Virus record (IMG/VR): IMGVR_UViG_3300045988_079139
Coordinates: 4,378 to 68,377 of that record
Source of the DNA: a virus
Reading direction: 5' to 3' (one strand)
DNA: 64,000 nt
Below the pieces are notes generated by a model that did no database searches, had not been told where the DNA came from, and saw only the letters and a list, made by a program, of their open reading frames with translations. Position numbers and translations under genes: made by a program. Shown here piece by piece: positions 26,512-54,189 of the stretch. Position 1 is the first letter of the stretch. Every line of letters begins with the position of its first letter.

Positions 26512-26567
26512 AATTTCTTTTAAAGAATTTTATATAATTATTTGAGAAGAAAGGAGCGCGAATTACA

Positions 26568-28043
26568 TTGCCAAATTATGTAAAGTTTAGACGTGGTACG
26601 CCAGAAGCGTATAAAAATCTATTGGATCTTGGTCGAATTGAGCAAGATACCCTATATTTCTTATATAAAGAAGATGGCTCCACAGAAGCGACCTTATATT
26701 TAGGAACTAAGTTAATTGGCGGTGGATCAGAAAGCTCCGGAGGCGCGTCTACACTGCGTGACTTAACAGATGTTTTAATCCAAGAGAACTTGGCAGATAA
26801 ATCAATTTTGATTTATGATACAAAAGCATCTGCTTGGGTTGATAAGACATTGGCAGAGGTTGTTCCCACTATGGTGGGAGCAACCATTGCTTCCTCTGGA
26901 GTTGGCGGATTGGTTCCAACCCCTCCCCAATTAGATGAAAATGGCGAATTAAAGTTCTTAGCAAATAATGGCGAATGGGTTCATATTGATACAACCAATA
27001 AGAATCAGCACATTATTTCCGTTGAGAACGGTGAAATGTTATTACATGAAAATGTAATTAATGAAGCTACTAAGGAATTAGAATTATCCGTAAATGATAT
27101 TCTAATTATTAAAGACCCTATCTCCGCAAATAAGTGGCAACACACCGCTTATGTCTATAATGGAGCAAATTGGGTTGCAATGGATGGTAATTATAATGCA
27201 GAGAATGTTTATTTCGATGAGGATTTAATTACTACTTTTGCAATTGGTAATATTTCACTTACTAATGGTCAAGGCAAAATTGCAGCCGCAGGTAAAAACT
27301 TAAAAGAAGTTTTTAATACAATTTTCTTAACAGAAAAAAATCCTAGCACTACTCAACCTTCAGTAAGTTTCTCTTCTGTCACTTCTGGAGGATATGAAGT
27401 TGGTACTACTGTAACTCCTTCTTATAATGCATCATTTAGCACAGGCTCTTATTCTTATGGTCCTGCTACTGGTGTAACTGTAGATTCTTGGGAAGTTACT
27501 TCCACAGATGGAGATACAAGTGATGCTAAATCTGGCACTTTTGCTTCTTTTATTGTGGAAGATGATACAAATTATACCATTACTGCAAAAGCAAATCATA
27601 GCGCTGGCGTTGTTCCTGTAACAAATGTCGGTAATGATTATGAAGATGGCGCAATTAAAACTGGTAGTAAGAGTAAAACTTCTTCTGCCATTTATGGCTA
27701 TCGCAACAGTTTCTATGGTACTGCAGAAAATAAAGATGCTTTAGATTCTGACAAGATTAGAGCTTTAACTGCAAGCGGTTATGCTTTAGCTAATGGTGCT
27801 CAGATTGAAGTTGCAATTCCTTTGGATGCTATGCGTGTAATTATTGCTTATCCAGCAACACTAAGAGATGTAACTTCCATCTTAGATGTTAATGGCATGA
27901 ATGCTGAAATTGTTTCTGGTTTTACCAAGCAAACAATTGAAGTTGAAGGCAAAGACGATTATGACGCAATTAGTTACAAAGTTTATACAATGGATTATGC
28001 AAATCCAAATGATAAAGAAAATACTTATAAAGTACAAATCTAA
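26568..28043 (+). CDS. Tail fibre / receptor-binding-type protein (491 aa, TAG-free)
   Basis: TTG start after AAGGAG. The N-terminus (FRRGT...LYF...LYLGTKLIGG) belongs to an N-terminal module shared with 29448, 31294 and 41052. Confidence 0.6.
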   Translation: MPNYVKFRRGTPEAYKNLLDLGRIEQDTLYFLYKEDGSTEATLYLGTKLIGGGSESSGGASTLRDLTDVLIQENLADKSILIYDTKASAWVDKTLAEVVPTMVGATIASSGVGGLVPTPPQLDENGELKFLANNGEWVHIDTTNKNQHIISVENGEMLLHENVINEATKELELSVNDILIIKDPISANKWQHTAYVYNGANWVAMDGNYNAENVYFDEDLITTFAIGNISLTNGQGKIAAAGKNLKEVFNTIFLTEKNPSTTQPSVSFSSVTSGGYEVGTTVTPSYNASFSTGSYSYGPATGVTVDSWEVTSTDGDTSDAKSGTFASFIVEDDTNYTITAKANHSAGVVPVTNVGNDYEDGAIKTGSKSKTSSAIYGYRNSFYGTAENKDALDSDKIRALTASGYALANGAQIEVAIPLDAMRVIIAYPATLRDVTSILDVNGMNAEIVSGFTKQTIEVEGKDDYDAISYKVYTMDYANPNDKENTYKVQI

Positions 28044-28060
28044 GAAGGAGGATAAAGATA

Positions 28061-29428
28061 ATGGCTTTAGATTTTGGTAAATTAAATTTCAGCGTTAGCT
28101 TTAATCCTACTTCTGCTTTCCCGATTGATGCAAGATGTTATTTTGAAAGCTATGCTGCTGCAGAAGCTGCGGCCGCAAAAGCAGAAGCCGCAGGAAGCAC
28201 CAATACAGTTTATTACTATGGTCAAAATGTGGTTGTTGTTGAAAATGGTGTAGCAAGTTTCTACATTATCCAACCAGATGGTACTCTTGGCGAAGTCGGT
28301 GGAAAAATTACCATTAATACAAGTTTATTTGAATATGACGAAGATGGTAATTTAAGTCTAAAGGGATTTGCTGATGCAGTTGCTGGCGCACAACTTGTAA
28401 AAGGCGCTGATAATACAGTCTCTTGGGTTAAACCAGATTCTACTACTGTAGAAGGTTTATCAACAGCTGTTGAAACTCTTCGTAAGGATGTAGACGCTTT
28501 AACTAAGAATGTATATACAAAAACAGAAGTTGAAAAATTAATTTCTGATGCAGCTCATTTAAAGCGTAAAATTGTTGATAGGGTTGAAGATATTTTAGCT
28601 TATATCACTGAAGCTGAAGATGAAGAGCATTATATTTTTATGGTACCTACTGGCTTCCAAGAAGAAGCTGATAAATATGATGAATATATTGTTGTTAATG
28701 GTGCCATTGAAAAAATTGGTTCTTGGGAAGTTAATCTTGATGACTATGCAACTAAAGATGATTTAAAAGATAAAGTCGATAAAGTTGAAGGATATGGATT
28801 AATTTCTAATGAGAATGCTAATAAACTTGATGGAATTGAAGAAGGCGCTGAAAAGAACTACATTAGTTCTGTAGAAGAAGCTCAGTTCCAAGTTATTGAA
28901 GGTAAACTAAAATTAATTGCTGTTCAACAGAATATTATTACCGGATTAGCAGATACATTAAAAGGCAAAGTTGATGTTATTGAAGGTAAGGGTTTATCTA
29001 CCAATGATTTTACAAATGAGTTAAAAGCTAAGTTAGAAGCAATTCCTGTTGCTGATTTAAATGCAGCTTTATCAAAAGTTAATGCTTTAGACAAGGATAT
29101 CTATGGATATCAAGATGAAGAGGGCAATGAGGTTCCTGGTTTAATTGCAGTTGTTCCTCAGTTACAAAATGAGTTAAATTTATTAACTCAAACTGTAAAT
29201 ACTAATAGCGGCAGTATTCAAACTTTGAATTCAACTGTCGGAACTTTAACACAAACTGTTAATACTTTAACCCAGACAGTTAATGGTTTTGCTGATACAT
29301 ATGTTTCTATTGCTAATTTCAATGCAGTTGTTGGTAATTTAGATTCTATGTTGGAAAACCAGGTTAATATCATGAATGAAATTGATGATATTAATAATAG
29401 ACTGACTTGGCATGGTATTGAAGACTAA
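28061..29428 (+). CDS. Fibre-like coiled-coil protein (455 aa, TAG-free)
   Basis: AGGAGG RBS. The protein is Ala-rich N-terminally and has C-terminal repeats (LTQTVNT...) with a coiled-coil appearance. Confidence 0.6.
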   Translation: MALDFGKLNFSVSFNPTSAFPIDARCYFESYAAAEAAAAKAEAAGSTNTVYYYGQNVVVVENGVASFYIIQPDGTLGEVGGKITINTSLFEYDEDGNLSLKGFADAVAGAQLVKGADNTVSWVKPDSTTVEGLSTAVETLRKDVDALTKNVYTKTEVEKLISDAAHLKRKIVDRVEDILAYITEAEDEEHYIFMVPTGFQEEADKYDEYIVVNGAIEKIGSWEVNLDDYATKDDLKDKVDKVEGYGLISNENANKLDGIEEGAEKNYISSVEEAQFQVIEGKLKLIAVQQNIITGLADTLKGKVDVIEGKGLSTNDFTNELKAKLEAIPVADLNAALSKVNALDKDIYGYQDEEGNEVPGLIAVVPQLQNELNLLTQTVNTNSGSIQTLNSTVGTLTQTVNTLTQTVNGFADTYVSIANFNAVVGNLDSMLENQVNIMNEIDDINNRLTWHGIED

Positions 29429-29447
29429 TAAAGGAGGAAAATAAATA

Positions 29448-31157
29448 ATGGCTGATGTTTTATTTAAACGCGGTTCACAAACCGATTTAGACGCATTGCG
29501 CGTTAATAGTGATAAAACAAAGAGAATTCCTGGAGCTTTTTATTTAACTGAAGACTCTCATAGATTATATGTTGGTATCAACAATGATAATAATGATATC
29601 GTTCCTGTGAATGAGGGTATTACTACTGTTGAGACTTTAAATCAGTTACCTAATCCTTCAACCGCAGATGATAAGAAATTAACTACGGGTCAATTCTATT
29701 ATGTTTATAAAGACAACTCTGGTAATGCGCTAAATGTTTTAGCTATTTATAATGGCCAAGAGTGGATTCAAATTAACTCTAATACTGATACTACTATCAG
29801 TTCTTTCACTCAGACCGTATCTGTTTCCAGTGGTACTGCAACTATTAAGGGTGATATTAAAGACTCTTCTGGTACTACTAAATCTAGTAATTTTAAAATT
29901 ACAGTTGCTGGTGGCTTAACATTAAGTGTTAATACTGCTAAAGATACTTTAACTATTGACGCTAGTGCTTTACAGCAGGATTTAGGACATACTGTAGACA
30001 CTTCTGGCGTTGATATTACTTTATTACATCCTAAAACAACTGGAAATAAATTCCGTATTGAAGCTGGTAATTTCACTACTATTGAAGCAAACTCTGACAA
30101 TACTGGTATTAAAATTAACAGTGCTGACCATAGAGTAAAATCTGTCGCCATCGGCAATGGCAATGCCGCAGGTAATAGCACTAATGGTTTTAATATTAAA
30201 GTTACTGATAATAGTAGTAATTCAAAGAGTGCTAATTTTGATCCAACCATTAAGCTGGCAAATGACACAGATGCTCGTCATTTCACTGGCGGTAACATTA
30301 CTTTGCCAGTATATACCACTACTGAAATTGATGATAAATTCAAATCAGAGCTAAAAGCAATTGATGGTATGACCTATAAAGGTACTATTGGTACTAATGG
30401 TACTGGTCACAATGGTAATGCATTACCAACAACTAATGTTCGCATTGGTGACACTTATAAAACTCTTTCTACTTTTACTGTTGCAATTGGTGGAGTAACT
30501 CCCTCTGAAGGCGATGTAATTATTGCTCGTTCTACAGATGGAACTGAAAATGCTAATGGTTATATTGATTCCGCTAAAATTACTTGGGATTTAATTCCTT
30601 CTGGTAACGAAGATACTACTTACTATGGAGTATCTGCAACACACGGTATTGGACTAAAAGACAGTAGCAATGCAACTGTTATGGCTTTCACATTAGAAAG
30701 CGGAAATGCTAGCATTACTTTAGAAGATACCACTGGTGATAAATCCAATAAAGTAAAAATTACTCACGCAGCTCCAACTGCCCAGACTAAAACTGCTGAA
30801 ACTATTACTGGTGTAAAAGGAAGCGGAGATCACGTTCAAAACACTTTGACTGGTACTGTTATTAAAGATGTACTGAAAGATTCAACTGGTCACGTTGCTG
30901 GTTTACAACAGGCCAATATTAGTTTTTCTGACACTAATGCAACTTTAGTTTCTGCTGGTGATACTACTGTAGCTGCAGCTTCTTTGGGTAGTAGTTCTAG
31001 TAAAGTTTCTTTAAAAACTACTTTGAAACAATCTAGTGGTACTACTAAAACTTCCACCTCTGTATTTACTGTATATTCTGATAATAAAAATTTACAAGTT
31101 TCTGCAGATGCTACTAATGATGCTGTAAAAGTATCCTTTGTGTGGGATTCTTTCTAA
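29448..31157 (+). CDS. Tail fibre-like protein (569 aa, TAG-free), Thr/Ser/Gly-rich beta-rich body
   Basis: AAAGGAGG RBS. Its N-terminus (LFKRGSQTDLDAL...GAFYLTED.HRLYVG) is shared with paralogues. Confidence 0.6.
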   Translation: MADVLFKRGSQTDLDALRVNSDKTKRIPGAFYLTEDSHRLYVGINNDNNDIVPVNEGITTVETLNQLPNPSTADDKKLTTGQFYYVYKDNSGNALNVLAIYNGQEWIQINSNTDTTISSFTQTVSVSSGTATIKGDIKDSSGTTKSSNFKITVAGGLTLSVNTAKDTLTIDASALQQDLGHTVDTSGVDITLLHPKTTGNKFRIEAGNFTTIEANSDNTGIKINSADHRVKSVAIGNGNAAGNSTNGFNIKVTDNSSNSKSANFDPTIKLANDTDARHFTGGNITLPVYTTTEIDDKFKSELKAIDGMTYKGTIGTNGTGHNGNALPTTNVRIGDTYKTLSTFTVAIGGVTPSEGDVIIARSTDGTENANGYIDSAKITWDLIPSGNEDTTYYGVSATHGIGLKDSSNATVMAFTLESGNASITLEDTTGDKSNKVKITHAAPTAQTKTAETITGVKGSGDHVQNTLTGTVIKDVLKDSTGHVAGLQQANISFSDTNATLVSAGDTTVAAASLGSSSSKVSLKTTLKQSSGTTKTSTSVFTVYSDNKNLQVSADATNDAVKVSFVWDSF

Positions 31158-31230
31158 TAATATAAATCTAGGACAAAGCTTGTTAAGAAAGCTTGTATGA
31201 TTTTTAATTCTCTATAGAGGATATTTGAAT

Positions 31231-31269
31231 GGGTGACAGGATTATATCCTGTCACCCGTTTTTTTATTT
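31231..31269 (+). terminator. Rho-independent terminator
   Basis: gggtgacaggattatatcctgtcaccc hairpin followed by gttttttt. Confidence 0.8.
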
Positions 31270-31293
31270 AAAAGGAAAGAAAGGAGAATATAA

Positions 31294-34200
31294 ATGAATA
31301 GTTCATTTAGACCCGTGCGTGGTATTGAGGCAAAAATTGTTGACCAGCCTTTGCATGACGGCTATATCTATTTTGCGACTGACAGCGGAAAAATTTATTT
31401 AGACACTGCAACAGATAGATATTCACTTGGTGCTAATGGCGCCGCAGTTTTATATGCAAATGCTGAAAATGTAATTTTTAACACAGATAACTCTTATACT
31501 ATTCTATATAGTTATCTAGATGACCAAAATGCCATTCCAAAAGCTGAAGATTTAGTAATCAATAGTGATGGTCGATTCTTTAGAGTTAATTATTACGATT
31601 CTGCTTCTGGCTTAATTAACTGTAAGCTAATCGCAGTTAGTGGTAGCGGAGGCGGCGGAGGTAATACCCCAGGCAGTCCAGATGCTCCAAGTGATGATCC
31701 AAAAGTAATTAAAGTTACTTATCACGATTTAACTTACTCCTTCTTGAACGGTCGTACATATACAATTGATTTCACTGCATTATCTCAGGTTGACTTATAT
31801 TTAAATATTAGTTATACTGTTAAAAATGCACAAAATCATACTACTGGTTTTGGTAGTATGCAAGTAAAGTCTGGCCAACGTGTAAGCTTGCCAGTAGGTC
31901 AGTATATTACACCAGAAGGCGGCTATCATGCAGTTGATATTATTATTCAGGGTGCTAATGCTTATGAATATACCCGTACTATCAATAGAATTAAATGTGT
32001 TGATTTATAGGTTGCCAATGATCCAGAAAAATTTACTTGTCAAAAAATTTATGATGGAACAATTCCTTATTATGTAAAAGTTGTCGGTCAAATTAATAAG
32101 ACTTTACATATTGAGATTGATGGAAAACCTTTTACTACTAAAACTTTAAGTTCTAGTGAAAGTGATACTTCTATTTACGTGCCGATTGACTGTAAGACAT
32201 TGGGCTTAAATACTGGCGTACATACTATTACTGCATATATGATGGCTGACGGTGTTCCTAGTAACACTATCATGACAGACTTCATTTATCATCCAGAAAA
32301 TGCTGCTGATGCAGTTTATGTTATTGTAACAGAATATCCAGAAGAGTGTATGAGTTATGAGACTCCCGCTGTTTACTACTGGGTATATAATACCGCACAA
32401 ACAGAAGGATATAAAAACTCTCTGTCCTTCACTGTTGATGGTGTAGTTGTAGCAAAAGATATCGTTGAAGCTCAGAACACAGGTACAAGCCTAAGATGGA
32501 ATGTTACTGGTTTGAAACCAGATGCTAAAAATATTTGTGAAATTAACTGCGGTAGCGGCAGCCGTACATTTGAAATTTACTGTCATTATAGTAGTATTTT
32601 TGAACCAACTACTGATGGTGCAGTTTTAATGTTAAGTGCTGAAGGTCGTACAAATAGCACTTCTTTAGAGCGTCGCTTAGAATGGAAATACACTAATGAC
32701 CGTGGTACTTCCTATACCGCTGAATTAAAAGATTTCAACTGGAATAACAACGGTTGGACAATTGATGATGCTACCGGAAGAGATTGTTTAAGAATTAGCA
32801 ATGGAGCTTCTGTAGAGATTCCTATGATGCTATTCCCAAATGCAGCTCCAAATACTGGTGGTTACACTTTTGAATTTGAATTTAAGCCTTATAACTTATA
32901 TTCTTATAATCTTTTAACTCAATCAACTATCACTGTGGAAAATGACAATAACACAGAAGATGATGAAGTTGATATTCTTCGTGAATTTAACTCTGACTTA
33001 GCTGCAATTTCTTATATTGCTACTGGCAATGATGGTAAGGCATACGGTATGTGCTGTGGTACTCAGGATGCTTTCTTCCGCATGAGCGATGGTAAAAATG
33101 TTACTGTCCGCTATACCAATGATACTGTAGTAAATGTTGCTATCACTGTTAATGCAGCGAAAGAACAAATTTGTATGTATGTTAATGGCGTTATGAGTGG
33201 CATGGTCGCTTATAAGAGAAGTTCCGCAAAACTTCCCATTCAGGCTAATAAGTTAATTATTAATTCTGATCAGTGTGACTTGGATATTTATAATATTCGT
33301 ATTTATGACCAGGCATTAACTTCAAAACAAATTGTTCAAAACTATATTGCAAGCACTAAGGACATGGATATTTATAATCAAAATGTTTTTAATGCTGCAG
33401 ATGAAACTGTAAGTTTAGCCGCATTGCAAGATTATAATGATGATAATCCAAGTAATGCGACAATTCCTTATATGATTTTTAAGACTAAATCTCCTGATAT
33501 TTTGCCTTTCAATAAAGCAAATGAAGATGTTATTTGCTCTATTGAATTTGTAAACCCTGCTTTGGACTATGCTTTGGCAAAAGGTGAGATTAACGAGTCT
33601 TATTATAAAAAACACGCACCTAGTTTTACTGCTGATGAAGTTACAATTAATGTTCAGGGTACTTCTTCTCAGAAATATCCAAGAAAGAACTTTAAAGGTA
33701 AGTTTAAGAAAGCAAAAAATTGGCAATGTCGTGAAAAATCTGTAAATGATTTAGTTGGTGATAAGTCACTATCTAAATTCTATATGGATGAAAGTATGGC
33801 AGAAAAAAGCATTTGTTGGAAAGCTGACTATATGGATAGCTCCAGTTGTCACAATACTGGTTTTGCTAGCTATGTGCAAGAGCTATATTGGAATCACCCA
33901 TTAGATTACTATGAAGGAACTAATGTGCCAGCCGCAAACAAGGATGGACAATTGGGTGAATATCGTAAGAAATATCGTACTAGCCTATATGGATTCCCTG
34001 TTTTAGTGTTCCATCAAAAGTCTGATGGTTCTACTGAATTCATTGGCCGCTATAATTTCAACTTAGATAAGGGCGCAGACGATACTCTTGGTATGGCTTT
34101 AGAAAAAAATCATCCAGTATTAACCGACAAAACCTATGATAAGGTTTGTGAATGTTGGGAAATGGCAAATAACATGGGTGGTCGTTGCTCTTTCAGAGGT

Positions 34201-37200
34201 AATCCTTTTGATTATTGCTATGACTATAATCATGTTAATGCTGATGGTACTATCGGTGCTTATATCGTTGATGGTAAAGAGAGTCAGAGCGATATTGGTG
34301 ACGATATTGAAGTACGTTATCATATTAATGGTGATGCCATTGAGGGCGCTTGGGATAATTTAACTAAACCCTTGGATGATGGTGGCACTCCAATTTCTTC
34401 TAGAGAAGCTTTCGAAGTATTGCTTGGAGGCGATGCTGACGGAAACAATAGAACTGGTGCTTATGCGCATTTAGAAAGATTGTTTAAGTGGTTACAGTCT
34501 TGTTATTATGCTTTTGATATGAATACTGATGAAGATAAAGATTGGGTAAGAGAATTATTAGGTCGAGATCCTATTGCCGACGAAGATGGTAAATATTACG
34601 ACGCTAATGGAATTCCTATTGACCCAGACTTTAGAGAATTGAGAAATGCTCGTAAAGTTAAGTTTGAAACTGAATTTGACAAGCATTTAAATAAAGAATA
34701 TTGCACTGTTTATTATATTTTAACTGAATTGTTATTACAATATGACTCTCGTGGAAAAAATATGATGTTATCCTCTTGGGGTCCTATGGAGGCCGGAGGA
34801 GAATATATTTGGTTCCCAATTTTCTATGATATTGACACTCAGCTTGGTGTTAATAACTCTGGTATTCCTTCTTGGGAGTATAACGTAGAACCAACAACTG
34901 GTTTTAATAATCCTGGCGGCAATAGAGCTTTCTCTACTGCAAACAGTTTGTTATGGAATAATTTCCATCAGTCTTATGCGGTTGAAAGTAAATATGTTCA
35001 AGATTATTACCGTTTATTGAGAGGTAGTACTTTAACAATTGCTAAAATTAATGGATATTATAATTTTGATTATGATATTAGTAAGGCTTATTGTATGAAG
35101 GGTATCCTTCCAATTAGTATTATGAATGCAAATCAAAATTATAAGTATATTGCTCCAAGCACTAAAGGTTATATTATTGGCGTCGATGACGCTGGTGCTC
35201 CTAAATATAGAACAACTAGTGCATATTTCTATTGTTTGCAAGGAACAAGAGAATTACATAGAGCCCAGTTATTACGTAATCGCTTCAACTATTACGATAG
35301 TAAATGGATGGCTCAGGACTACCAGCCTGGTACTGGCGGTAGTGCAATGCGTTGGCGTGCCAATGCTTATAATGACCCAGAAGATGCTAGCTTGCGCAGT
35401 CATTTAACATTACAGGTAAGACCTGCATTAGACCAATATCTAGTATTGTGGCCTGATGAAAGTGCAACTTATGTTGTGCCTATTTTTGCTAAGGGTGGCG
35501 AAACGGCTACTATTGATTTGATGAATTTGTTCTCTTCTGGAACTTATCAGCAACAGTTGATTTATATCGGTGGTTATAAATATTTGCAAGAATTTGGCGA
35601 TGTAAGTTTGTTATATCTTGATGAATTTGAATTCCCTGATGATGCTAATAATATTACTAAGATTCAACTTGGTAATGAGAATCCTCGATATAAGCCCAAT
35701 GAGCAGTTTAAAGTTGATGCGATTGATGAAGCAACTCAAAAGAAACCTTTGTTAAAAGTTTTTGATATTACTAATATTGATAAAATCAATAGTAAGATTG
35801 AGCTGTTAGATTCTGTTAAGCTAGAGACTTTTAAGGCTCTTGGTAGTAAAATTACTGGTGCAGTATTTGCTGATGGTGTTAACTTGCATCATTTATATTT
35901 ACCTAATACTGTTAACTCTTTATCATTGAGTAAAGCTACAAATCTAGAAAGAGTTCTATATAGTCCTAGTGAATTAAAAGAAACTTTGGATGATGGTACT
36001 GTTGTTGATACTGAAGGTTTATATATTGAAGATCTTGTAAAAACTGTTAATGGTTCTAAGACCACTAATATTAGTGAAATCAATATTGTCAGTGGCGGGT
36101 TGAAGTTATATAGCTATGATATGCTAAATAAGGTTACTGAAGCTGTCGACAGTATGATTGCTTCTGGTTCTGATGCTGCATTATCTATTAATATGGAAGA
36201 TGTTCATTGGACTCCTTACACTCAGTTGGGCGAGGGTGCTATTTACCAGCAGAGCAAGGTTGATAATTATAAATATGCAACTAATAACTACTCTTTCAGA
36301 GATTATGAATATAGTAATGAAAACCAGTGGCAATTAGATTTGTTAAATGGTCGTATTTATGAATATGTTGAAAGCCCTGTTGCTCCTCCTGTAAATCTTG
36401 ATTTACTTGATGTATATCTGGATCAGGAGAAAGACAGCGAGACTCAAATGCCTAAGCGCTTTACTAATATTACAGATACATTGGCTAAAGCTTTACCAGT
36501 TATTACTGGTGAATTATATATTGATAATGCAAATCATGCTGCGATTTCTGAAGCTGATATTGCTAATGTTTATAATGTTGCTTTCCCAAGTTTATCTATT
36601 AAGGCAGCAAAAGTGGCTGATGCTTATCGAGCTCGTTTTGTTCGTAAAGATGGTAATGTTGAATCTGAAATTAAAGTTTTGCGTTTTAATACGACTGATC
36701 AAAACATTATTATTACACCTCCTTCAGACAATGAAATTTCTACTCCAAACCATTATGACTTTAAGGGTTGGACTACTACCGATCCTGCAACTGTAAATGA
36801 TTTAGATAAATTGCCAATTATTACTGATTTTTCTACTTTTGCATTCTCCGAAAGTGTTCCAGAATTAACTTTCTATGCAGTATATAAGAAGCATGAATAT
36901 CAAATCACCTTCCTAGACCCTGGCGCTTCTGGAAATGATGCTTATGAAGAAGTTATTCCTACTGCTTACGGTTCAATTCTAACTGAACCATCTCGAATTC
37001 CTTATAGAGGTGCTGCTGAAGCAGAGATGGACTTAGATCAAAGACTAACTTTTAAAGGTTGGACTGATGTAAGAGATAATGCTGGTGTCGTTGGTACAGA
37101 AATTTTAAATGGTGTTTTGGTTGATATTTCAACATATAAAGCAGATAGAAATTATACCTTCTATGCTGTATTCACTCAAGAAAGTGTCTACACAAATACT

Positions 37201-37983
37201 ACTGATAACAAGTATTTTACCTTCGGTTATAATTATAATTATGTTGATCCAGTAGATCCTTCTAAGAATGCTGTCGGAAGTACAATTAGAATTTCTTCAG
37301 AATATCAAAATGGTGATTTAAGAGGTAAGATTACTGTGCCAGCTGTTGATGATTAGGGTAACCCAATTGTTTCTATTATGGGCTTTGATACTGATGCAGC
37401 AAAAGCAATTACTCATTTATTCTTTATGCCAGATAATAATATTTTGCAATTTGAATCTCAAGCCTTCGAAGGAAATAACTTTGATAGTAAATTGCAATAT
37501 ATTGACTTCCCAAATCTTACTAAGTTACGCTCAATTAACAGATATGCCTTCCGTTATCTGGATAATTTACAATTATCTGAAATTCCTGCTCCTGTTGTCT
37601 ATGTTGGACAAGAAGCATTTAATGGAAGCTTTGAGTCTTTGTCTGGAATTAAAGAATTCTATATTAATGGTAGTGTAACAAAAATGGACCCTGGAGCTTT
37701 CTCTAACTGTGATGTTCCAATTGAAACTCTATATGTAGGAAAGCCTGGAGACCCAACACAGCTGGATATTAGTTCTTGGAATTCTTCTCAAGCTCCTTAT
37801 TTCCAGCAAAATCAATATTTCCGTCCTAAGACTGTATATATTTATTGTGATGGAGATCGCATTGATGCGTTCCATGCGGCAATGTCTAAGTATGCAGAGG
37901 GTCAATCTATTTTCCAAGTTGCTTGGGAGGGCGAAGAAGAATTAGGACAATATTTTGTTAAAGATGCTAATGATTTTTCTTGA
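31294..37983 (+). CDS. Giant fibre/receptor-binding protein (2,229 aa if both TAGs are read through) with a LamG-like lectin domain and a C-terminal BspA-type leucine-rich-repeat domain
   Basis: RBS ggaaagaaaggag. The 31294, 32179 and 37378 fragments are co-frame, and only the TAGs at 32008 and 37354 separate them. The supposed starts at 32179 (GTG) and 37378 have no RBS. A LamG-type motif, DIYNIRIYDQALTSKQI, lies near 33290. The 37378-37983 segment has a BspA-like LRR pattern. An alternative reading splits it into three genes if these TAGs terminate. Confidence 0.5.
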
Positions 37984-38001
37984 GAAAGGAGTACATAAAT
38001 A

Positions 38002-38199
38002 ATGAAAAAAGAGGTCTTATATACATATTTAGGCACTAATGGTATTATTTGTTCTCCTGTCCATTTAGAGGATACATATTATACTCGCAAAGTGCGTTTA
38101 TATGCCGATAAAGATAAGCGACTAACCAAAGACGGCAAGACCTTCCATAAAGTCGTTGTTGTTCAAGATGAAGAGGTTAGTGAATGGTATGAAGTATAA
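38002..38199 (+). CDS. Small hypothetical protein (65 aa)
   Basis: RBS gagaaaggag, TAA stop. Confidence 0.45.
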   Translation: MKKEVLYTYLGTNGIICSPVHLEDTYYTRKVRLYADKDKRLTKDGKTFHKVVVVQDEEVSEWYEV

Positions 38200-38307
38200 G
38201 GCCAAATATAATTATTTGACTTACTTCATACGTTATATATAACAAAGGGCCAAGGGAATTTTCCCTTGGCCTCATAATAAAAATATAATAGAAAGGAAGA
38301 GTTTAAA

Positions 38308-40272
38308 GTGATTACTTCTCAAAATGTTCAAAATAGTGCCAAGTACTCTGCGTTATTTACTGATGCTTACAATCTGTTGAAGAAAGAAAATGATTTAACT
38401 CAGGGTGAATTAGATCTTGGCGGCTTTACTCGCTTAGAGGAATATTTTACTCGTATGCAAACTTTAAGCGCTAAGCATGTTGGCGAAGTTCAGAATATTG
38501 TAGATATCTTTGATGAGAAAAACAATGTTTATTATGCTAAATATGCGAAGTTCTTAATGCTTCCTCTTGATGAAACTCCTTTTGAAATTAATGCTAACTC
38601 TCGTCAGATTACTGTTCCTGATAATTTCAGAAAGTATGGCGTTAGCTTACATGGTGACCAGATTGCTGAAACTTTATTATTTAGAGTTGATAGATTCTTT
38701 GATTTCCAGGATTTGTTGAATACCACAATTCTAGTTCAGTGGACTAGACCCGGCAAAGAAGCAGAATCTGAGCGCGAAGGCGTTTCTTTAATTACTTTGG
38801 TTGACTATGAAACTGAGCCTGGTAAGATTTGGTTTGGTTGGCCATTAACCTCAGATATTACTAAAGAAGCTGGCGAATTAAAGTTCTCTGTTCGTTTCTT
38901 GCGCAAGAACTCCTCTTCTGGCAATATCTCTTATAGTTTAAATACTTTAACTACTCAAGTTACCATTAAGCCTGCTCTACATCCTAATTTAAATAATAAT
39001 TTAACTATGGATGAAGCTTCTATTTTATTTAGTGAAGCTATTGTAAACAGTCCTTCTACTGGTAGTACTCCTGCCGCTCGTCCTGTATATCTACAGAATT
39101 TGGCACAGAAGGCATGGTTGGTAGACGATGCATTGAAATTAGCTGTTACTGTTAAAACTGGCGATACTGGTGTATTAACTTATACTTGGTATAAGGCTGA
39201 TATTACTGGTGTTGACGCTGATGGTAAGTTTATTATTGCTGATGGTGTTTAGTTAGAAGGTAAGACTGAATTGCGTCGTACCACTGACGTTGTTCGTGCA
39301 GAAGATAAAGCTTATTATTTAGATAGCGAAGATGGCGCTGGTGTTCCTTATTTAGGAGAAATTAAAGCTGGCGTTGATGAAAACAATCAGCCTGTGGGTG
39401 TAAGCACTGACGGAGCCGCTGTCTATGAAAGATATTCTGTGTATGAAATGCCTGCCACTGGAGAAGTTTCTGGTCAGTATTGGGTTATTGCCCAGAATAG
39501 AGCTGGTACTTCCACTGAGCAGACTAAGAGTGTTTACTGTGAAATCCCTGGTCCTAAGACTTTGGTATTTACCGCAGATAAAGCTTTGGCTACTAATGTA
39601 TTTATCGCTGATGATGGTTCTGTAACATTACAGGCAGAGGCCACTCCTGATGATCCTGACCCAGCTCATACCACTCTAACTTATAAGTGGGAAAAGAAGA
39701 CTGCTATTGATGGTGAATATCAGGAAGTTAAAGTTGATGGCACTCCAGTATCCACCGGTAAGACTTTAGTTTTGGCTAAGGCTGGTGAAAATGAAGTGGC
39801 AGCTACTAAGCATATTGGATGGTATCGCGTTACTGCAAAATCTGTAGTAAATCGTGATGAAATGACTTGTGTAAGTGCTCACGATTGTAAGGTTACTGCT
39901 CATCCTACTTTGCCAACTGTCACTTTCCCAACTCAGGAAATTACTTTGGTTAAAGAACATGATGCTGATGATAATGGTGTATTCACTTTGAATATTGAAT
40001 TGGCCGACAAGGGTGGTTTATTACATAGTGAATATTATACTTACACCTGGTATCGTAGTATCACTGATAGCGATCCAGTTGAAGTTAGTGCTGATGATGC
40101 AGATATTATTACTGCTGCTGACATTCTAGCAGAGCATCGTAATAATACTTTACAGGTAAAATTGGCTCCAAACGATGAAGTTGAATTCTACTTCTGTGAA
40201 GTCCGCAATCATTTGAATGGAGAGGTTTCTGGTCCTGCTGTTACCAAGCTATTCAGAGTAAGTGCACAGTAA
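38308..40272 (+). CDS. Structural protein (654 aa, 1 junction TAG at 39250), paralogue of 40298
   Basis: GTG start after gaaaggaag. The 39271 fragment is co-frame, ending at TAA 40270-40272. Residues 60-200 align with the 40298 protein (F.VDRF.D..DL....I.VQ...). Confidence 0.5.
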
Positions 40273-40297
40273 TATTTAAGAAGGAGGGCTGTAATTT

Positions 40298-40981
40298 ATG
40301 ATTACAACTGCTGAAGAGTATTACCGCGCTTTATTTAGAGTTCAAGATGATAATCCTCCAACGCTAGCCCTATTACCTCACGCAGAAACTACTTATAAAG
40401 TTGATTTAAATAAGAGAACTATTGAAACTCCTGAGTTTCTAAGTGTTGCTCGTGACCATAAAGCAGAAAATATCTACTTTGAAGTAGATAGATTCTGCGA
40501 TTATATGGACTTATCAACTTGTTGCTGCATTGTACAATATGAGGCTGGAGAAGGAGAAACTCGTAGAAGCGGTATTTATCCAGTACCTTTTTATGATATT
40601 ACAACACCAAATAATCGTAGAGAAATTGAGAATCAAGGACAGGATATTCCAGAAGGTGGAGAAACCACCGAAACAGATAATCCAGTTTTATATATTAAAG
40701 ATAAAATGTTAGTGCCTTGGTGCTTAGATGGTGCGGCAACCGCTTATCCCGGTCCTATCACCTATTCCCTACAGTTTTATCGTTTGAATATTGATGGTAC
40801 TAAATTCGTTTATAATATGAATACCACTCCAGTAACAAGTGAAATCCTTTATGGCATGGACGTTGTAAAAGAAAATTACAACGGTGCATTTGATATTGAG
40901 CCAGATGAATATCAAAAGATTTTGGCTCGTGTCGTTGCTTTAGAGGGAACATTTGATATTAAGTGGATGGATATGTTCTAA
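40298..40981 (+). CDS. Structural protein (227 aa), paralogue of the N-terminal region of 38308
   Basis: AAGGAGGG RBS, TAG-free, followed by a terminator. Confidence 0.6.
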   Translation: MITTAEEYYRALFRVQDDNPPTLALLPHAETTYKVDLNKRTIETPEFLSVARDHKAENIYFEVDRFCDYMDLSTCCCIVQYEAGEGETRRSGIYPVPFYDITTPNNRREIENQGQDIPEGGETTETDNPVLYIKDKMLVPWCLDGAATAYPGPITYSLQFYRLNIDGTKFVYNMNTTPVTSEILYGMDVVKENYNGAFDIEPDEYQKILARVVALEGTFDIKWMDMF

Positions 40982-40990
40982 TTTTTATAT

Positions 40991-41028
40991 GGGTGGAATG
41001 ATTTAATCGTTCCACCCATTTTTTTATT
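40991..41028 (+). terminator. Rho-independent terminator
   Basis: gggtggaatgatttaatcgttccaccc hairpin followed by atttttttatt. Confidence 0.8.
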
Positions 41029-41051
41029 ATATATAGATTGGAGGGATAAAA

Positions 41052-41711
41052 TTGGCAGATTTAAAATTTTTAATGGGTATTGAGAAGACTAACACTGGCG
41101 ATTCTCGTTTACCTGCCGCAAATGTGGCTATCGTAAAAGGACAAGTATATTTTGCAGAAGATAAATCTAAAAATGGTTTTGCAAGAATTTACTATGATAC
41201 AGAAGATGGAAGACGCGTTACTGTCAATAGCTTATCATCAACCTATGACTCTAGTAATCATGAAATTGCTAGTTATTATGTTACTTTTCCAACCTTACAA
41301 CTGGATTACAGTAGTGGTAAATATGCTTTAATATTTAGTGATGGAAAAGGTTCAAAATCAACTTATAATTTATCAGATATTTATCCCAGTCAGTGGACTT
41401 GGAGCGGAGGTACGACCGCAGGTCCTACTGCTTCTATTAAGTTATTAAGAAATGGTTTAGATTATGGCAATGTCAGTGTTGCTGCGATTCCTACAGCTTC
41501 AACTTCAGCTTCTGGTATTATTACAACCGGAAGTCAGACTCTTGCTGGTGAAAAAACTTTTAATAATAAAATGACTGTTGGTACTGGTTCATCTTCTGGA
41601 ACCATTTTACAAGTCAGTGGTAATGCTAATATTACTTATAAATTAAGTTTCAATGATAAAGCTCATCTACAATATGACAATGCAGATGAATGTCTATATT
41701 TTACATTTTAA
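41052..41711 (+). CDS. Fibre N-terminal-module protein (219 aa)
   Basis: TTG start 6 nt after GGAGGG. It shares the N-terminal motif (KF..G.......L.....V.G.VYFAED....RIYYDTEDG) with 26568, 29448 and 31294. Confidence 0.55.
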   Translation: MADLKFLMGIEKTNTGDSRLPAANVAIVKGQVYFAEDKSKNGFARIYYDTEDGRRVTVNSLSSTYDSSNHEIASYYVTFPTLQLDYSSGKYALIFSDGKGSKSTYNLSDIYPSQWTWSGGTTAGPTASIKLLRNGLDYGNVSVAAIPTASTSASGIITTGSQTLAGEKTFNNKMTVGTGSSSGTILQVSGNANITYKLSFNDKAHLQYDNADECLYFTF

Positions 41712-41724
41712 GAGGTGAAAATTA

Positions 41725-44532
41725 ATGAGTTTACAAGTTTGGTTACCTCTTAATGGACATATAAAAAATTATGGCTTATCAGACGTAACAACCTCATTAA
41801 TTAATAATCCAACTATTGTTGCGTCTAATCGTGGAGAGTGCTATAATTTTAATCCTAGTAATGAAAATAAATAGGCAATTGAAGTAAGCATTCCCGATAT
41901 GCCTAGATGGATTCAAAATGAATTTTCAATCGCATTTTGGTTTTATCATCGAGAAGGTTCTGATAGAAGTGTTATTTTTGGCAATCATCAATATAATGGA
42001 AGCTATACTTTTAATATTGAAAAGCTTGCTAATAACCAATTAAGAGTATATATGTAGGCCAAACCAGATGCTTCTTTTTCTACTTGTACAATAGCCGCAG
42101 ACACATGGACTCATATTACCATTGTTAAAACATCGGATGAATTACGTATTTACAAAGATGGAGTTAAAGTAAGTACTCGCACACATTTATCTTCTGATTT
42201 ATGGCAAGCCGCTGATGGAGTAAAGTATTTATTAGGTAGAGACGGCCGCACAAACAATACTGCATTAAATGGTATGATAAGTGATTTCCGTATTTATGAC
42301 CATATATTATCTCAAAAGGAAATTAAAAATATATCGCAAGGTTTATTATTAAATTATTCTTTTGATGATTTATATATGACTGCTACAACTAATTTAGTGA
42401 ATAAAGCAGATGGAAGTTTTACAAAAAATGCTAGTTCTGTTTGGCATGCAGGATTAAGTTGTCCAAAAGCTTATGTCACTCCTGGAAAAACTTATACTTT
42501 CTCTTGTGAAATGCGTCATACTGGAACCTAGACTTATACAGCTTATTTTGATACGAATTGTACTGATGAGGATGGCGTATATAGTGGAAATGATGCAGCT
42601 ATGCAAAATATTAAATCCAACTCTGGTGCAACAATTCCAAAAGACGGAACATGGGTAAAAATTTGGGTTACAGTAACTATTAAACCGGACGCAGGAAAAC
42701 CATATATTCATCATACAATATGTCCACAGGTTACAGCAGAAGAAGTAACTTTTTATTATCGAAATGTACAATTGGAAGAAGGTCCTATGGCAACACCTTA
42801 TGTTGCTTATAATTCACCAAGAGAAAATTGCATTGTAGATAATTCTGGTATGGGAAGACATGGCAAATTAAATACAAGCAGTTGTTATGTTTCCACTGAT
42901 ACTCCTCTTGGAGAATACTCTTTACATTTAAATGGCTCTGATACTGGGGATAGAGCTTGTGTTATAGGCGATTTAAATTTGGATGATATTAAGACTTACA
43001 CCTTTGCAAGCTATATAAAAATTAATACTTGGGGAAAACAAACAAGTGGTTTGTTTAATGCAAATTATACTTCAAGTTCATCTCCTGGAGATTATACGGC
43101 AAGCCCTATTCATCATCGCGACTCTCATTTTGATATTGCTACGAAAGGTAATACGGTGGCTACAACAGGAGCAACATATCAAAGATTATCTTGTTCAACA
43201 TCAGATATTCCAGTAGGTTAGTGGAAGCATGTCGCAGTTACTTTTGATGGTAAGACAGCTACTTTATATATTGATGGAGTTAAGAAAAGAAGCGTATCAT
43301 TTAGCGCAGCAGTGACTTTAGCACCTTGCAAATATATCTTTTTATCATATTCCTCTGCCGGTGGTGCATAGAGAGTAACAAATGCTAATTGGTCTGATTT
43401 TAGAGTATATTCAACTTGCTTATCTGCTGATGATATTAAAAAATTAGCTTTAAATCATGTGGCAGTAGATAAAGATAATAACTTACATTGTTATGGTCTT
43501 GTAGAAGAAACTAATATTGAACACAATATATCAAAACAGAGTGTGGTTAATGTTGGGGTTAAAGAAGAAGTAAACATCTATCCAGGTTCACAATATAATG
43601 CGGCGTCTATGAATGTTACTTATAATTTTGCAACGGATATATTCAAGGATTATGGATTTAATTCTTGTACCAAATTTGCTGCTTCAAATACATCTACTTC
43701 TGCATTTATGGCTTATTCATATTTGTTACCAATTTCTTACTACACTCCAAATTCTACTTATAGCTTTGCATGTTATGCATATGTTTCACCTGATTGTAAT
43801 GCAAATTTGCGTATCAATTTGGAGCAAAGCACAGGTTGGGTTAAAAATTATTAGAATACAAAAAGCAATATTAATGATACAACAAAAGGACAAGTAATTA
43901 AAGTTACTGGAACTATTAAGGCCAATAGTAACGGAAAAATTTATATAATGTTCTATCCTAACCCGAATCAAGCAAATACTTTTACAACTGGATATTTCTT
44001 GATTGCTGGTTTAACCATAGTCCCTGGAGAAAATATTCCACATCCAAGAGTAGAAAGAATGAGTGGAAATTTAATTTCATCTATGTCTCCTGGCACAAAT
44101 ATGACAGCCAATGGAACTCATAGTTTAATTGGAGATTTTAGTAAAAATTCAGATACTTATGGTTGGTTCAATACTGTTGAACCATTAGAGTTCGATAGAA
44201 TGTATCGCCTAACTTTTAATGTATCTAATTTAACAGATGGTAGTATTTGGGGTTGGAGATTGTGGAATAATGCTAATTACGAATTAAAAGTAGATAGAAA
44301 TGGAAATTATTCTTATACTTTTATTGTAAAACGAAATAAACTTCCTGCGAATGTTAGTTTCCAAAGATTTTTGTGGGATGACGGTGGCCGCACAAATCCC
44401 ACAGGCACAGTTTATTTTAATAATTTTAAACTGGTAGAATGTATTGCTCAACCGTATCATGGAATTTTTGAAACTAATAAAGCAGCTATCCATCCTTCAT
44501 ATATTGAAATGAATAATATATATGAAGATTAA
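41725..44532 (+). CDS. LamG (concanavalin-A-like lectin) two-domain receptor-binding-type protein (935 aa, 7 TAG)
   Basis: RBS agaggtga. The 42274, 42601, 43459 and 43948 fragments are co-frame with only TAG between them. LamG signature motifs are ISDFRIYDHILSQKEI and SDFRVYSTCLSADDI. The N-terminus MSLQVWLPLNGH is paralogous to 47675. Confidence 0.6.
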
Positions 44533-44849: not shown

Positions 44850-44863
44850 TAAGAACCATATTA

Positions 44864-53100: not shown

Positions 53101-54189
53101 GTAGCTGATACAATTCTTTTTGCTCCTTGTAGCGCAGACGGAGCTTGGGTAAGTAGTTATGAACAGATTTGGAGATTCCAAGGATCTATTGAATTCCCTC
53201 AAAACTCTGCTCGCGTAAGAGGAAATACTGCTACTGATTATACTCCTGTTTACATAAGTGGTGAGAAAAACACTTATGGCGGTATCGCTTTTTAGAATGG
53301 ATTGCATGTCATGTCTAGTGCAGATCACCATGGTTTTTGGGACGGTACATGGATCCTTTATCGAAACACTTCTCATGGAGCTATTAGTATTGGTACCGCT
53401 CAAACCACTGCTAACGGATATGCAATTACTCTTGCGGGAAGTACTTATATTAATGGTAATACATCCATTAATGGAACTTTAACTATGAGCAACGCTATTC
53501 AACTACAAGTTGATGGTGGTAACTGGTATAATCCTATTAAGAATTTAACACATAGTGGACTATATTATGATGCGTCAAGTTCTAATACTTCTACCTACTG
53601 GAGTTTAATTGCTTTAAAATTCCCTAACCAAACTTACTCTTTAGGTGGCGAGCGCTCCGGAAATACCTTCGGTATTTATAGTTACAATAACAGTAGAACA
53701 GATAACGGATACGATGGAGCTCTTTACGTTCATGGTGGCAACCACTACTTCTATTGTACTACTAGACTATATGGCGCTGTATGGAATGACTATGCGGAAT
53801 TCCGTACTCAAGAGCAAGAAGTAGCCCCAGGCTATTGTGTCGCTTCTAGAGATAATGGCAAAATTCATAAAACCCATAAGAGACTATAGGCTTGTGACGG
53901 TATTGTCTCTGATACTTATGGTTTCTCCATTGGTGAAAATGAAGAAAATAAAACGCCTCTTGCTGTTGCAGGTCGTGTACTTGCATACTGCGAAGGAGAT
54001 AAAAACGATTATCGTGCTGGTGATACTGTTTGCGCAAGCGAAAATGGTAAAGTCTGCAAGATGACTCGTGAAGAAATTCAAATGTGGCCTGACCGAATTG
54101 TTGGTACAGTTTCTGAAATTCCTGATTATGAAATTTGGGGAACTGGAAAGGTTAAAGTTAATGGTCGTATTTGGATTAAAGTAAAATAA
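50167..54189 (+). CDS. Tail fibre B (1,340 aa, about 8 TAG), paralogous to fibre A at the N-terminus and at an internal segment
   Basis: RBS gagagaaaggag. The N-terminus is MAQLNDLLVLGKSNLLG. The 50560, 51649, 52675 and 53302 fragments are co-frame. The segment DGSIYFYPKCDTVANRVGVILDTSRQFYPDSNNTGSLG matches fibre A. A TAG at 53887 precedes the last 100 aa, and the gene ends at TAA 54187. Confidence 0.65.

Follow-up and report, generated by a model that had tools for sequence, protein, structure and literature searches.

Profile-profile comparison shows that four genes in the tail-gene block of this phage, beginning at positions 26568, 29448, 31294 and 41052, encode homologous, diverged paralogous copies of one N-terminal domain, hereafter the module. 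The best explanation overall, which we consider probable, is that these are four paralogous trimerising anchor domains carrying variable distal parts, and that they are the same type of domain as Mtd_N, which opens Mtd and HylP1, and as the Pfam 'phage tail tip' motif. The window, that is the whole stretch of 64,000 nucleotides analysed here (IMG/VR record IMGVR_UViG_3300045988_079139, positions 4,378 to 68,377), belongs to an uncultured ~130-kb TAG-recoded siphovirus-like gut phage, whose host is probably a Gram-positive gut bacterium. The features of the region are as follows.

26568..28043, + strand: F1, 491 aa, TTG start; module at about residues 1-53 (26568-26726)
28061..29428, + strand: fibre-like, 455 aa; C-terminal part helical and repetitive; weak matches to tail fibres and tail proteins in PHROG
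29448..31157, + strand: F2, 569 aa; module at about residues 1-57 (29448-29618), then small beta domains one after another
31227..31261, + strand: terminator-like hairpin, 16-pair stem then a T run; immediately precedes F4
31294..37983, + strand: F4, giant protein of 2229 aa; module at about residues 1-50 (31294-31443)
38308..40272, + strand: 654-aa protein with one TAG, at 39250; weak Hoc-like and Ig matches
40298..40981, + strand: 227-aa protein with a domain in common with the 654-aa protein
40989..41019, + strand: terminator-like hairpin, 14-pair stem then a T run; immediately precedes F3
41052..41711, + strand: F3, small fibre-like protein of 219 aa, TTG start; module at about residues 1-60 (41052-41231)
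41725..44532, + strand: LamG protein 1, 935 aa, 6 TAG; two Laminin_G_3 and CBM_4_9
44982..47663, + strand: 'MAQL' fibre 1, 893 aa, 5 TAG; another N-terminal type
47675..50146, + strand: LamG protein 2, 823 aa, 8 TAG; two Laminin_G_3 and CBM_4_9; paralogue of LamG protein 1
50167..54189, + strand: 'MAQL' fibre 2, 1340 aa, 6 TAG

Homology of the four N-terminal modules

Compared as single sequences, the four N-termini resemble each other only at chance level, and phmmer searches of each 60-aa N-terminus against the 643 ORFs of the window recovered the query alone, with the other three at E = 1.8-42. We compared profiles made from the metagenomic homologues of each protein, and the common module proposed in the sequence-only reading was borne out over about 45-60 residues by the very profile-profile comparison on which that reading had staked the claim (hhalign 79-95%, E 4e-8 to 2e-5). 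The F2 family is the hub of these matches, pairing with the families of F4 (94.9%, E 4.3e-8), F1 (88.6%, E 2.6e-6) and F3 (86.3%, E 4.8e-6, 56 columns); the F4 family also matches those of F3 (92.2%, E 5.9e-7) and F1 (79%, E 1.6e-5), and F1 against F3 is the sole pair without significance. The matches run in register from residue 1 and span the first strand, the helix and the hairpin, and the best P among reversed-profile decoys was 8e-4.

Family HMMs built without the window sequences gave the N-termini of the other members as their top non-self matches, and a merged HMM matched exactly the four N-termini among the 643 ORFs, the next ORF standing at E = 1. A fifth copy, sought with the family and merged HMMs in the 455-aa protein at 28061, the MAQL fibres and a 347-aa protein, was not found, and the 455-aa protein matched none of the module HMMs. 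Bridging sequences occur in relatives: a 646-aa protein of L006 matches the F2 and F4 family HMMs together, and proteins of L011 match those of F1 and F2 and those of F2 and F4. The literal consensus of the earlier reading suits F1 and F2 well and describes F4 (FRPVRG) and F3 (KFLMG) only loosely. Its unrelated distal domains hold at the level of sequence, where the distal parts have no detectable mutual similarity. Relatives were not found by a peptide-pattern scan of IMG/VR, nor was any similarity found by megablast of the fibre region (26000-42000) against INPHARED phages.

Gene models and TAG recoding

All four modules begin within residues 1-10 of their genes, and homologues back the four starts: MPNYVKF... 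of F1 is also present in P0027, P0121 is identical to the F2 product, P0251 matches the F4 start, and P0245 and P0246 retain MADLKFL(M/I)G, in support of the TTG start of F3.

In this phage TAG is a sense codon, as in the code-15 phages that read it as Gln. Reading through TAG raises the summed length of ORFs of at least 150 aa from 13,019 to 17,958 aa, TGA readthrough brings no gain, the 108 in-frame TAG codons lie in 20 genes, all 20 of which end in TAA or TGA, and related contigs are called with long products. No tRNA gene, including a CUA suppressor, was found in the 64-kb window of the ~130-kb genome. The share of TAG among Gln codons is 3/149 in the 26.5-41.7 kb block versus 105/484 in the flanking late genes.

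Several gene models had to be corrected. The 238-aa gene from 31294 to 32010 of the sequence-only reading is the beginning of the 2229-aa protein that ends at 37983, with readthrough of TAG at 32008 and 37354. We rejected three separate genes (31294-32010, 32179-37356 and 37378-37983) in view of the reading frame, which is unbroken over the whole length and has 56 codons free of stops following the first TAG, the homologues of the first 238 aa, mostly 2000-2900 aa long, and the orthologues called as 2233, 2254 and 2610 aa. Likewise, the genes at 38308 and 39271 are one, and the 'LamG' and 'MAQL' genes encode 823-1340 aa. The re-annotation gives 11 genes in 26.5-54.2 kb, about nine of them fibre- or lectin-like, so that the earlier count of about ten candidate receptor-binding proteins in 28 kb is nearly retained on altered gene models. 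Directly upstream of these genes are a tape-measure-like ORF and a gene that matches a PHROG 'tail protein' weakly. In LamG protein 1 the domains are recognised with Pfam E-values of 1.8e-38 and 2.9e-7; this protein, which has no module, is a candidate carbohydrate binder. The two MAQL fibres are paralogues (E 3e-31), as are the 654- and 227-aa proteins over residues ~83-218 (phmmer E 1e-10). Searches of PHROGs returned only families of unknown function or weak tail matches.

Scanning GTDB genomes for prophage copies yielded only whole phage contigs in MAGs assigned to Bacilli, Lachnospiraceae, Prevotella and Burkholderiaceae, an inconsistent taxonomy that gives no host.

Conservation of the modules and of gene order

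Compared with a close relative, each protein is most conserved in its module: identity is 95-98% over the N-terminal 60 residues, the distal windows are 65-83% identical or replaced, and the 884-, 964- and 114-aa genes just upstream, which we take as baseplate genes, are 98-100% identical. In a distant relative the F2 orthologue retains only its first ~130 residues, and from one relative to another the distal regions of F2 and F4 have diverged or been replaced. As far as sequence comparison goes, this contrast fits an anchor kept constant in front of distal domains that can be exchanged. Identity among the four modules is only ~20-30%, yet each is well conserved among its own orthologues, which would point to four distinct attachment sites rather than a common one.

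The order F1, 455-aa gene, F2, F4 is fixed across large evolutionary distances, with the 455-aa gene between F1 and F2 in all the relatives examined, and the F1-F2-F4 arrangement is also present in a TGA-recoded lineage. In the related phages L010, L012, L013, L014 and L015, two or three neighbouring fibre genes open with a classical Mtd_N apiece, and in L010, L012 and L014 their positions are equivalent to those of F1, F2 and F4. F1 itself, with at least 2918 homologues (F2 has 251), consists of the module, a variable middle and a very widespread conserved C-terminal domain; phrog_35541 matches residues 174-479, and across the family this one C-terminal domain is combined either with the module or, in 410-aa homologues, with a classical Mtd_N. 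Conservation of this domain across thousands of homologues is atypical for a fast-evolving receptor-binding tip and speaks against the anchor explanation. F4 ends in a BspA-type LRR_5 domain (Pfam E 3e-10) and has a weak CotH-like match at residues ~1113-1244 (Pfam E 4e-4), and F3 has a weak BppL_N-like motif at residues 157-171 (E 0.0025).

Predicted fold and relation to Mtd_N

The module is a small strand-helix-three-strand domain, in which a strand ('hxF+RG') is followed by a short helix, a hairpin ('G-x-h-Y-F-x-x-D ... h-Y-h-G/D') and one further strand. The structure prediction called for by the sequence-only reading gave a confident model resembling phage-fibre N-termini, namely those of HylP1 (2c3f), Mtd (1yu0) and phage tailspikes, with low scores. 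Its best matches are pure trimerisation domains, those of collagen XV/XVIII (multiplexin; PDB 3n3f, 3hsh, 9bnb; identity 12-19%). Collagen XV/XVIII being an animal extracellular-matrix protein, this likeness, seen on the model alone, may be convergent and may tell us only what such a fold can do. The module is most likely a trimerising anchor. For full-length F2 (pLDDT 81, pTM 0.30) Foldseek gave no match to the AlphaFold model at E < 1e-3.

Mtd_N (PF18454) is the N-terminal domain of the major tropism determinant of Bordetella phage BPP-1 and of the streptococcal prophage hyaluronidase HylP1. Both it and the module are short domains that open a phage fibre or receptor-binding protein, trimeric in the case of Mtd_N and probably so here, and both have a strand bearing a basic-Gly motif, a short helix and a hairpin in that order; Mtd is a trimeric receptor-binding protein at tail-fibre ends (PMC2408619). 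The classical domain differs in its conserved W and 'GE...DT...K.GDG', which the window modules lack, having 'G.hYF..D...hY.G/D' instead. Neither the four window proteins nor their isolated N-termini match PF18454 even at E <= 10, and none reached a module-relevant threshold in Pfam and NCBIfam scans. The PF18454 threshold is reached by 4 of 40 N-termini of the F2 family (best E 2.6e-8; P0199, residues 6-40, 30 bits vs 26.3) and by none of 45 in the F4 family. Against the profile of 42 classical Mtd_N N-termini, hhalign gave a weak match for F2 (P = 0.0058, 44 in-register columns, decoy 0.036) and nothing significant for F1, F3 and F4.

For the F1 family, 18 of 30 N-termini reach PF24243 (Phage_tail_C, the 'phage tail tip domain') at residues ~6-30 (best E 1.9e-9), a 26-position model that covers only the first half of the module and whose name suggests a C-terminal place, whereas the motif is N-terminal here. 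The window F1 protein does not match PF24243, and in the family alignment it has extra residues (LDLGRI) inside the region covered. L007 and L008 also have the motif, on a 244-aa protein adjoining their F2 homologue. When profiles of the F2 and F4 modules were searched against PDB sequences, the only results were designed beta-propellers and other chance matches, with no Mtd or HylP; the F2 profile matching designed propeller blades, the hairpin motif is not unique to fibres. A literature search for PF18454 found nothing.

Proposed role of the module and alternative explanations

Under the anchor explanation, three chains would associate through the module, which would set the register of the trimeric fibre and form its proximal tip. 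The tip would insert into the distal complex of the tail or be seated on another fibre, with a separate site likely for each paralogue, while the mutually unrelated, faster-evolving distal parts, from the strings of beta domains to the 2229-aa protein with its LRR and weak CotH-like match, would face the cell surface. Together with the two LamG/CBM proteins and the two MAQL fibres, this would give the phage several different surface-binding proteins. The comparisons show the homology of the four modules, their N-terminal place, the contrast in conservation and the gene order kept in relatives; trimerisation, docking, distinct sites and receptor binding are inferred, as are the branched apparatus and broad host range that the sequence-only reading had suggested.

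A bolder form, which we regard as rather unlikely, is that the 26.5-41.7 kb block is a portable host-range cassette moving between phages of different codes and feeding a truly branched multi-receptor organelle, in which the four anchors would each plug a different fibre, including the 2229-aa LRR adhesin, into its own site on an unusually elaborate siphophage tail tip. The scarcity of TAG in the block and the presence of the F1-F2-F4 arrangement in a TGA-recoded lineage are what would speak for it.

The T4 long tail fibre is built of segments, gp34-gp37. By a similar serial assembly, which we also think unlikely, the module proteins would follow one another as segments or adaptors within one or two composite fibres, the module capping the previous trimer, and there would be far fewer independent receptor-binding proteins than genes. 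Such an arrangement would account for the fixed gene order, for the highly conserved C-terminal domain of F1 and for F3, at 219 aa a short protein, after which comes a LamG protein lacking any recognisable anchor; Mtd, too, is mounted at the end of another fibre and not on the baseplate (PMC2408619). However, F2 and F4 vary among relatives in their distal parts, by divergence or replacement, as exposed tips do, the strong terminator-like hairpins before F4 and before F3 suggest separate expression units, and the 2229-aa protein, with its LRR domain and weak CotH-like match, looks like an end-effector rather than a connector.

The foldon and the collagen XV/XVIII domain drive trimerisation, and the module could be a folding nucleus of this sort, without attachment specificity, docking being left to other regions or proteins. 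We judge this improbable. The pure trimerisation domains among the best structural matches agree with it, as do the matched tailspike chains, which are crystal structures and include at least one N-terminally truncated construct (5w6h, 'TSP4dN'). Phage fibres nevertheless attach to virions by the extreme N-terminus, where the module lies; further matches of the model are the short chains resolved in the head fibres of P68 and crAss001, presumably their capsid-attached parts; and the divergence between paralogues, each tight among its orthologues, suggests partner-specific constraints.

Independent origin of a common beta-hairpin sequence ('G-x-h-Y ... D ... h-Y'), which the chance-level pairwise E-values and the propeller-blade matches would allow, is very improbable in the face of in-register profile matches far better than the decoys, bridging sequences in relatives, a merged model that picks out these four ORFs and the extreme N-terminal position of every copy in adjacent tail genes.

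Significance and comparison with known systems

If the four modules are anchors, their recognition marks virion fibre genes in large, uncultured TAG-recoded gut phages, and the module boundary shows where the exchangeable, host-determining parts begin, a natural splice point for engineering or phage-host matching. Current Pfam models miss two of the four anchor sub-families, including that of widespread phage proteins of ~2000-2900 aa, and standard-code gene calling breaks these genes into misleading fragments.

With phAss-1 of the 'Caudoviricetes code 15 clade' (OQ749652; PMC10607447) the phage shares an origin in the human gut, a genome of ~130 kb, late genes in which TAG is a sense codon, a tape measure protein of some 3150-3200 aa and an organisation of the siphovirus type. 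Its 312-aa virion structural protein at 73-1011, which we take as the tail tube, also has 42% identity to that of phAss-1. The two are only distantly related. phAss-1 has two CUA suppressor tRNAs, the window none, and it is described with one or two receptor-binding fibre ORFs with pectate-lyase domains and not this fibre cluster (PMC10607447).

That phages combine a constant N-terminal anchor with variable distal domains and carry more than one receptor-binding protein each is a well-established principle, and the window genes are adjacent, with a conserved N-terminal part and unrelated distal domains. In the Ackermannviridae tailspike complexes (PMC11414711) fibre or spike genes likewise stand in a row, with conserved N-terminal parts and exchangeable distal domains, as also found in the dual receptor-binding proteins of Klebsiella podophages, with their branching domain and docking peptide (PMC13352976); the idea in such branched systems is that more receptor-binding proteins reach more receptors (PMC11414711, PMC13352976). 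Those systems use other N-terminal domains and their protein-protein contacts were mapped experimentally; the present phage differs further in being long-tailed and siphovirus-like and in having one giant member of 2229 aa. Phages commonly mount several host-binding proteins in this way, and the finding is solid but fairly ordinary.

Genetic code and identity of the phage

With TAG read through, stop-to-stop ORFs of at least 150 aa in the window add up to 17,958 aa, against 13,019 aa without it, and the longest reaches 3269 aa; reading through TGA brought no gain in the same total. Long single-frame ORFs contain up to 41 in-frame TAG codons; the 20 late genes examined hold 108 of these codons, and all 20 end in TAA or TGA. 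Judged from these reading frames, all late genes on the + strand of window positions 1-56700 use TAG as sense (code 15) and not the standard code. Under standard-code ORF calling the late genes fall apart into misleading pieces; in the standard-code listing, ORFs on the - strand at 57-64 kb are intact. No tRNA genes were found in the 64-kb window.

A 312-aa virion structural protein (73-1011), taken to be a putative tail tube, is 42% identical to its counterpart in phage phAss-1, which GenBank places in the 'Caudoviricetes code 15 clade' and which carries two suppressor tRNAs. Such phages, as described in the phAss-1 paper (PMC10607447), inhabit the gut, have genomes of ~130 kb and a siphovirus organisation, encode tape measure proteins of 3149-3209 aa and probably infect Clostridia. 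The 3269-aa ORF (3027-12836, +; 41 TAG codons) is long, helix-rich and Gln/Glu-rich and by eye looks like a putative tape measure protein; its length, in line with those of phAss-1-like phages, would imply a very long tail. No relatives were found by a peptide-pattern scan of IMG/VR or by megablast of the fibre region (26000-42000) against INPHARED phages, and a prophage scan of genomes returned mis-binned phage contigs only, with no host assignable.

Gene models of the fibre cluster

Re-annotation of the region at 26.5-54.2 kb gave 11 genes. F4 is one frame running from 31294 through TAG codons at 32008 and 37354 to 37983; the 56 stop-free codons beyond the first TAG are plainly coding, proteins homologous to its first 238 residues are mostly 2000-2900 aa long, and its orthologues on related contigs are called as 2233, 2254 and 2610 aa. 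The ORFs at 38308 and 39271 are a single gene, and the TTG starts of F1 and F3 are both supported by homologues.

Genes and hairpins of the fibre cluster
F1: 26568-28043, +; 491 aa; N-terminal module
28061 gene, between F1 and F2; 455 aa; helical, repetitive
F2: 29448-31157, +; 569 aa; N-terminal module
F4: 31294-37983, +; 2229 aa; N-terminal module, weak CotH-like match, solid LRR_5 match
Gene pair: 38308-40272 (654 aa) and 40298-40981 (227 aa); common domain, E 1e-10 (paralogues)
F3: 41052-41711, +; 219 aa; N-terminal module
LamG proteins: 41725-44532 (935 aa) and 47675-50146 (823 aa); each two Laminin_G_3 plus CBM_4_9; paralogues, E 2e-27
MAQL fibres: 44982-47663 (893 aa, MAQL-1) and 50167-54189 (1340 aa); paralogues, E 3e-31
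Terminator-like hairpin: 31227-31261, +; 16-pair stem then T run; immediately upstream of F4
Terminator-like hairpin: 40989-41019, +; 14-pair stem then T run; immediately upstream of F3
GC-rich hairpin: 38248-38271; 10-pair; precedes the 38308 gene

With strong terminator-like hairpins ahead of F4 and F3 and the GC-rich one ahead of the 38308 gene, the cluster seems to comprise several transcription units. Its genes alternate (F3-LamG, then MAQL-LamG-MAQL) and include three paralogue pairs. About ten candidate receptor-binding proteins had been counted here by the sequence-only reading; some nine of the 11 genes are fibre- or lectin-like, close to that count, which had rested on fragmented ORFs. 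The number of such genes exceeds that of small model siphophages.

Homology of the four N-terminal modules

The genes at 26568, 29448, 31294 and 41052 had been proposed to share an N-terminal motif. Their N-termini, of which the module occupies ~45-60 residues, read as listed MPNYVKFRRGTPEAYKNL..DTLYFLY..ATLYLG; MADVLFKRGSQTDLDAL..GAFYLTEDSHRLYVG; MNSSFRPVRGIEAKI..GYIYFATDSGKIYLD; and MADLKFLMGIEK..GQVYFAEDK..ARIYYD. A single-sequence phmmer search with each one recovered, of 643 window ORFs, only itself, with the other three at E 1.8-42, and Pfam and NCBIfam models gave no match on the four N-termini. Since single N-termini were not significantly alike, homologues were gathered for profile-profile comparison: at least 2918 for 26568, 251 for 29448 and 10 for 41052, and for 31294 (first 238 aa) 390 cluster representatives. 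Inside its own family every N-terminus shows strong conservation.

Profile-profile comparisons of the modules (match probability and E-value), in register from residue 1
F2 (29448) vs F4 (31294): 94.9%; E 4.3e-8
F3 (41052) vs F4: 92.2%; E 5.9e-7
F1 (26568) vs F2: 88.6%; E 2.6e-6
F3 vs F2: 86.3%; E 4.8e-6; 56 columns
F1 vs F4: 79%; E 1.6e-5

The comparison of F1 with F3 was not significant (E 0.16), and the best decoy, from reversed profiles, reached P = 8e-4 over six columns. HMMs built without the window sequences had the N-termini of other members as their best non-self matches (F4 HMM: 41052 at E 0.01 and 29448 at E 0.08; F2 HMM: 41052 at E 0.13 and 26568 at E 0.4), and a merged HMM matched exactly the four N-termini among the window ORFs, the next ORF lying at E = 1. 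Bridging sequences occur on two related contigs: a 646-aa protein of L006 matches the F2 and F4 models, and on L011 one protein matches F1 and F2 and another F2 and F4. Profile-profile significance, on which the proposal turned, was thus found in five pairs (E 4.3e-8 to 1.6e-5), in register and with decoys at P of 8e-4 or above; together with the merged HMM and the bridging sequences it establishes the motif as real and homologous.

A probable anchor domain of the Mtd_N kind

The AlphaFold model of F2 residues 1-66 is confident (pLDDT 85, pTM 0.66) and consists of a strand (6-9), a helix (11-19) and three further strands (31-34, 40-43 and 51-53). A domain of 50 residues is expected to give low structural-match scores, as this one does. 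No fold match came from the full-length F2 model, and PDB sequence-profile searches with the module returned propeller-blade look-alikes only.

The Pfam Mtd_N threshold was reached by 4 of 40 F2-family N-termini (P0199 residues 6-40, 30 bits), and that of PF24243, the 'phage tail tip domain', by 18 of 30 F1-family N-termini. A module swap in the Mtd_N-scoring F2 relatives was rejected, as their alignment to the window sequence is continuous. A classical Mtd_N N-terminus takes the place of the module in many F1 homologues that share the C-terminal domain; with one C-terminal domain behind either N-terminus, evolution treats the module and classical Mtd_N as interchangeable. In five related contigs (L010, L012, L013, L014 and L015) fibre genes starting with classical Mtd_N lie next to one another in twos or threes, and in L010, L012 and L014 an Mtd_N gene, a gene without Mtd_N and two further Mtd_N genes mirror F1, the 28061 gene, F2 and F4. 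Profile comparison with classical Mtd_N was marginal for F2 (P = 0.006) and not significant for F1, F3 and F4. Because of this and the low structural scores, we describe the module as a small, presumably trimerising anchor domain of the Mtd_N kind and do not file the four sequences under PF18454.

Distal parts of the fibre proteins

The distal parts of F1, F2, F3 and F4 have no detectable similarity to one another. In F4 the CotH-like match is weak (E 4e-4), the LRR_5 domain is BspA-type and C-terminal, and residues ~440-620 look like a putative LamG/concanavalin-type domain. At least 390 cluster representatives, mostly 2000-2900 aa long, belong to the family defined by its N-terminal ~240 aa, and Pfam holds no annotation for their N-terminus. 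The C-terminal ~320 aa of F1 form an extremely widespread, highly conserved domain (phrog_35541; at least 2918 homologues) with 54% mean column identity across lineages, present at 35% identity in Faecalibacterium phage FP_Brigit and preceded by a PF24243-type or classical Mtd_N N-terminus (homologues P0036-P0120). A domain so conserved may be structural or bind a conserved ligand. Similar short strands end 29448 (..VSFVWDSF, 31157), 41052 (..ECLYFTF, 41711) and MAQL-1 (..KCVDVIFD, 47663), and may represent a capping strand common to these C-termini; within the 29448 family, W566 and F569 hardly vary.

Conservation and occurrence of the fibre cassette

The gene order F1, intervening gene, F2, F4 persists in one relative at 90% identity, another at 49% and a lineage far more distant. 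Relative to the closely related L002, the three genes directly upstream (884, 964 and 114 aa; putative baseplate genes) are 98-100% identical and the fibre genes 85-93%. The first 60 residues of the fibre genes are 95-98% identical, and lower stretches are F1 60-180 (65-73%), F2 240-480 (69-83%) and the C-terminal third of F4 (67-89%). Of the F2 orthologue in L006, a distant relative, only the first ~130 residues are kept (29%), and F4 is 24% identical over part of its length.

The block 26568-41711 has 3 TAG per 149 Gln codons vs 105 per 484 in the flanking late genes (1089-26511 and 41725-54189; Fisher p = 2e-10), and the CAG share of CAA+CAG is 43% vs 16%. The relatives L002 and L006 have the same TAG-depletion trend in the fibre block, which may point to a recent acquisition from standard-code phages, to exchange with them, or to another timing of expression. 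A distant lineage (L008, 3-18446; also L007) carries the same cassette, comprising a PF24243-type 244-aa protein, an F2 homologue and a 2610-aa F4 giant. L008 is TGA-recoded, with 8 in-frame TGA in the giant, 11 in the upstream 767-aa gene and no in-frame TAG in either; phages of more than one genetic code therefore share the cassette.

Proposed role and comparison with known systems

From the earlier multi-fibre interpretation the common module and the unrelated distal parts stand, but the gene models needed correction for TAG read-through, and docking, branching and a broad host range remain proposals. We infer trimerisation, docking and receptor binding. Identity between the four modules is only ~20-30%, yet within its own set of orthologues each is conserved, which suggests that each would dock at its own partner site, not at one common site. 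A serious alternative to such individually docked fibres is serial assembly, in which some cluster proteins would act as connectors within composite fibres.

In pattern, F1-F4 resemble the anchored receptor-binding proteins of well-studied phages, in which proximal pieces are conserved and distal ones variable (PMC11414711, PMC13352976): here too the proximal piece is conserved and the distal pieces are variable or replaced. Mtd itself, a trimeric receptor-binding protein, sits at tail-fibre ends (PMC2408619). The design is already known; here it is built with diverged, partly unannotated anchor sub-families in a TAG-recoded gut siphophage.
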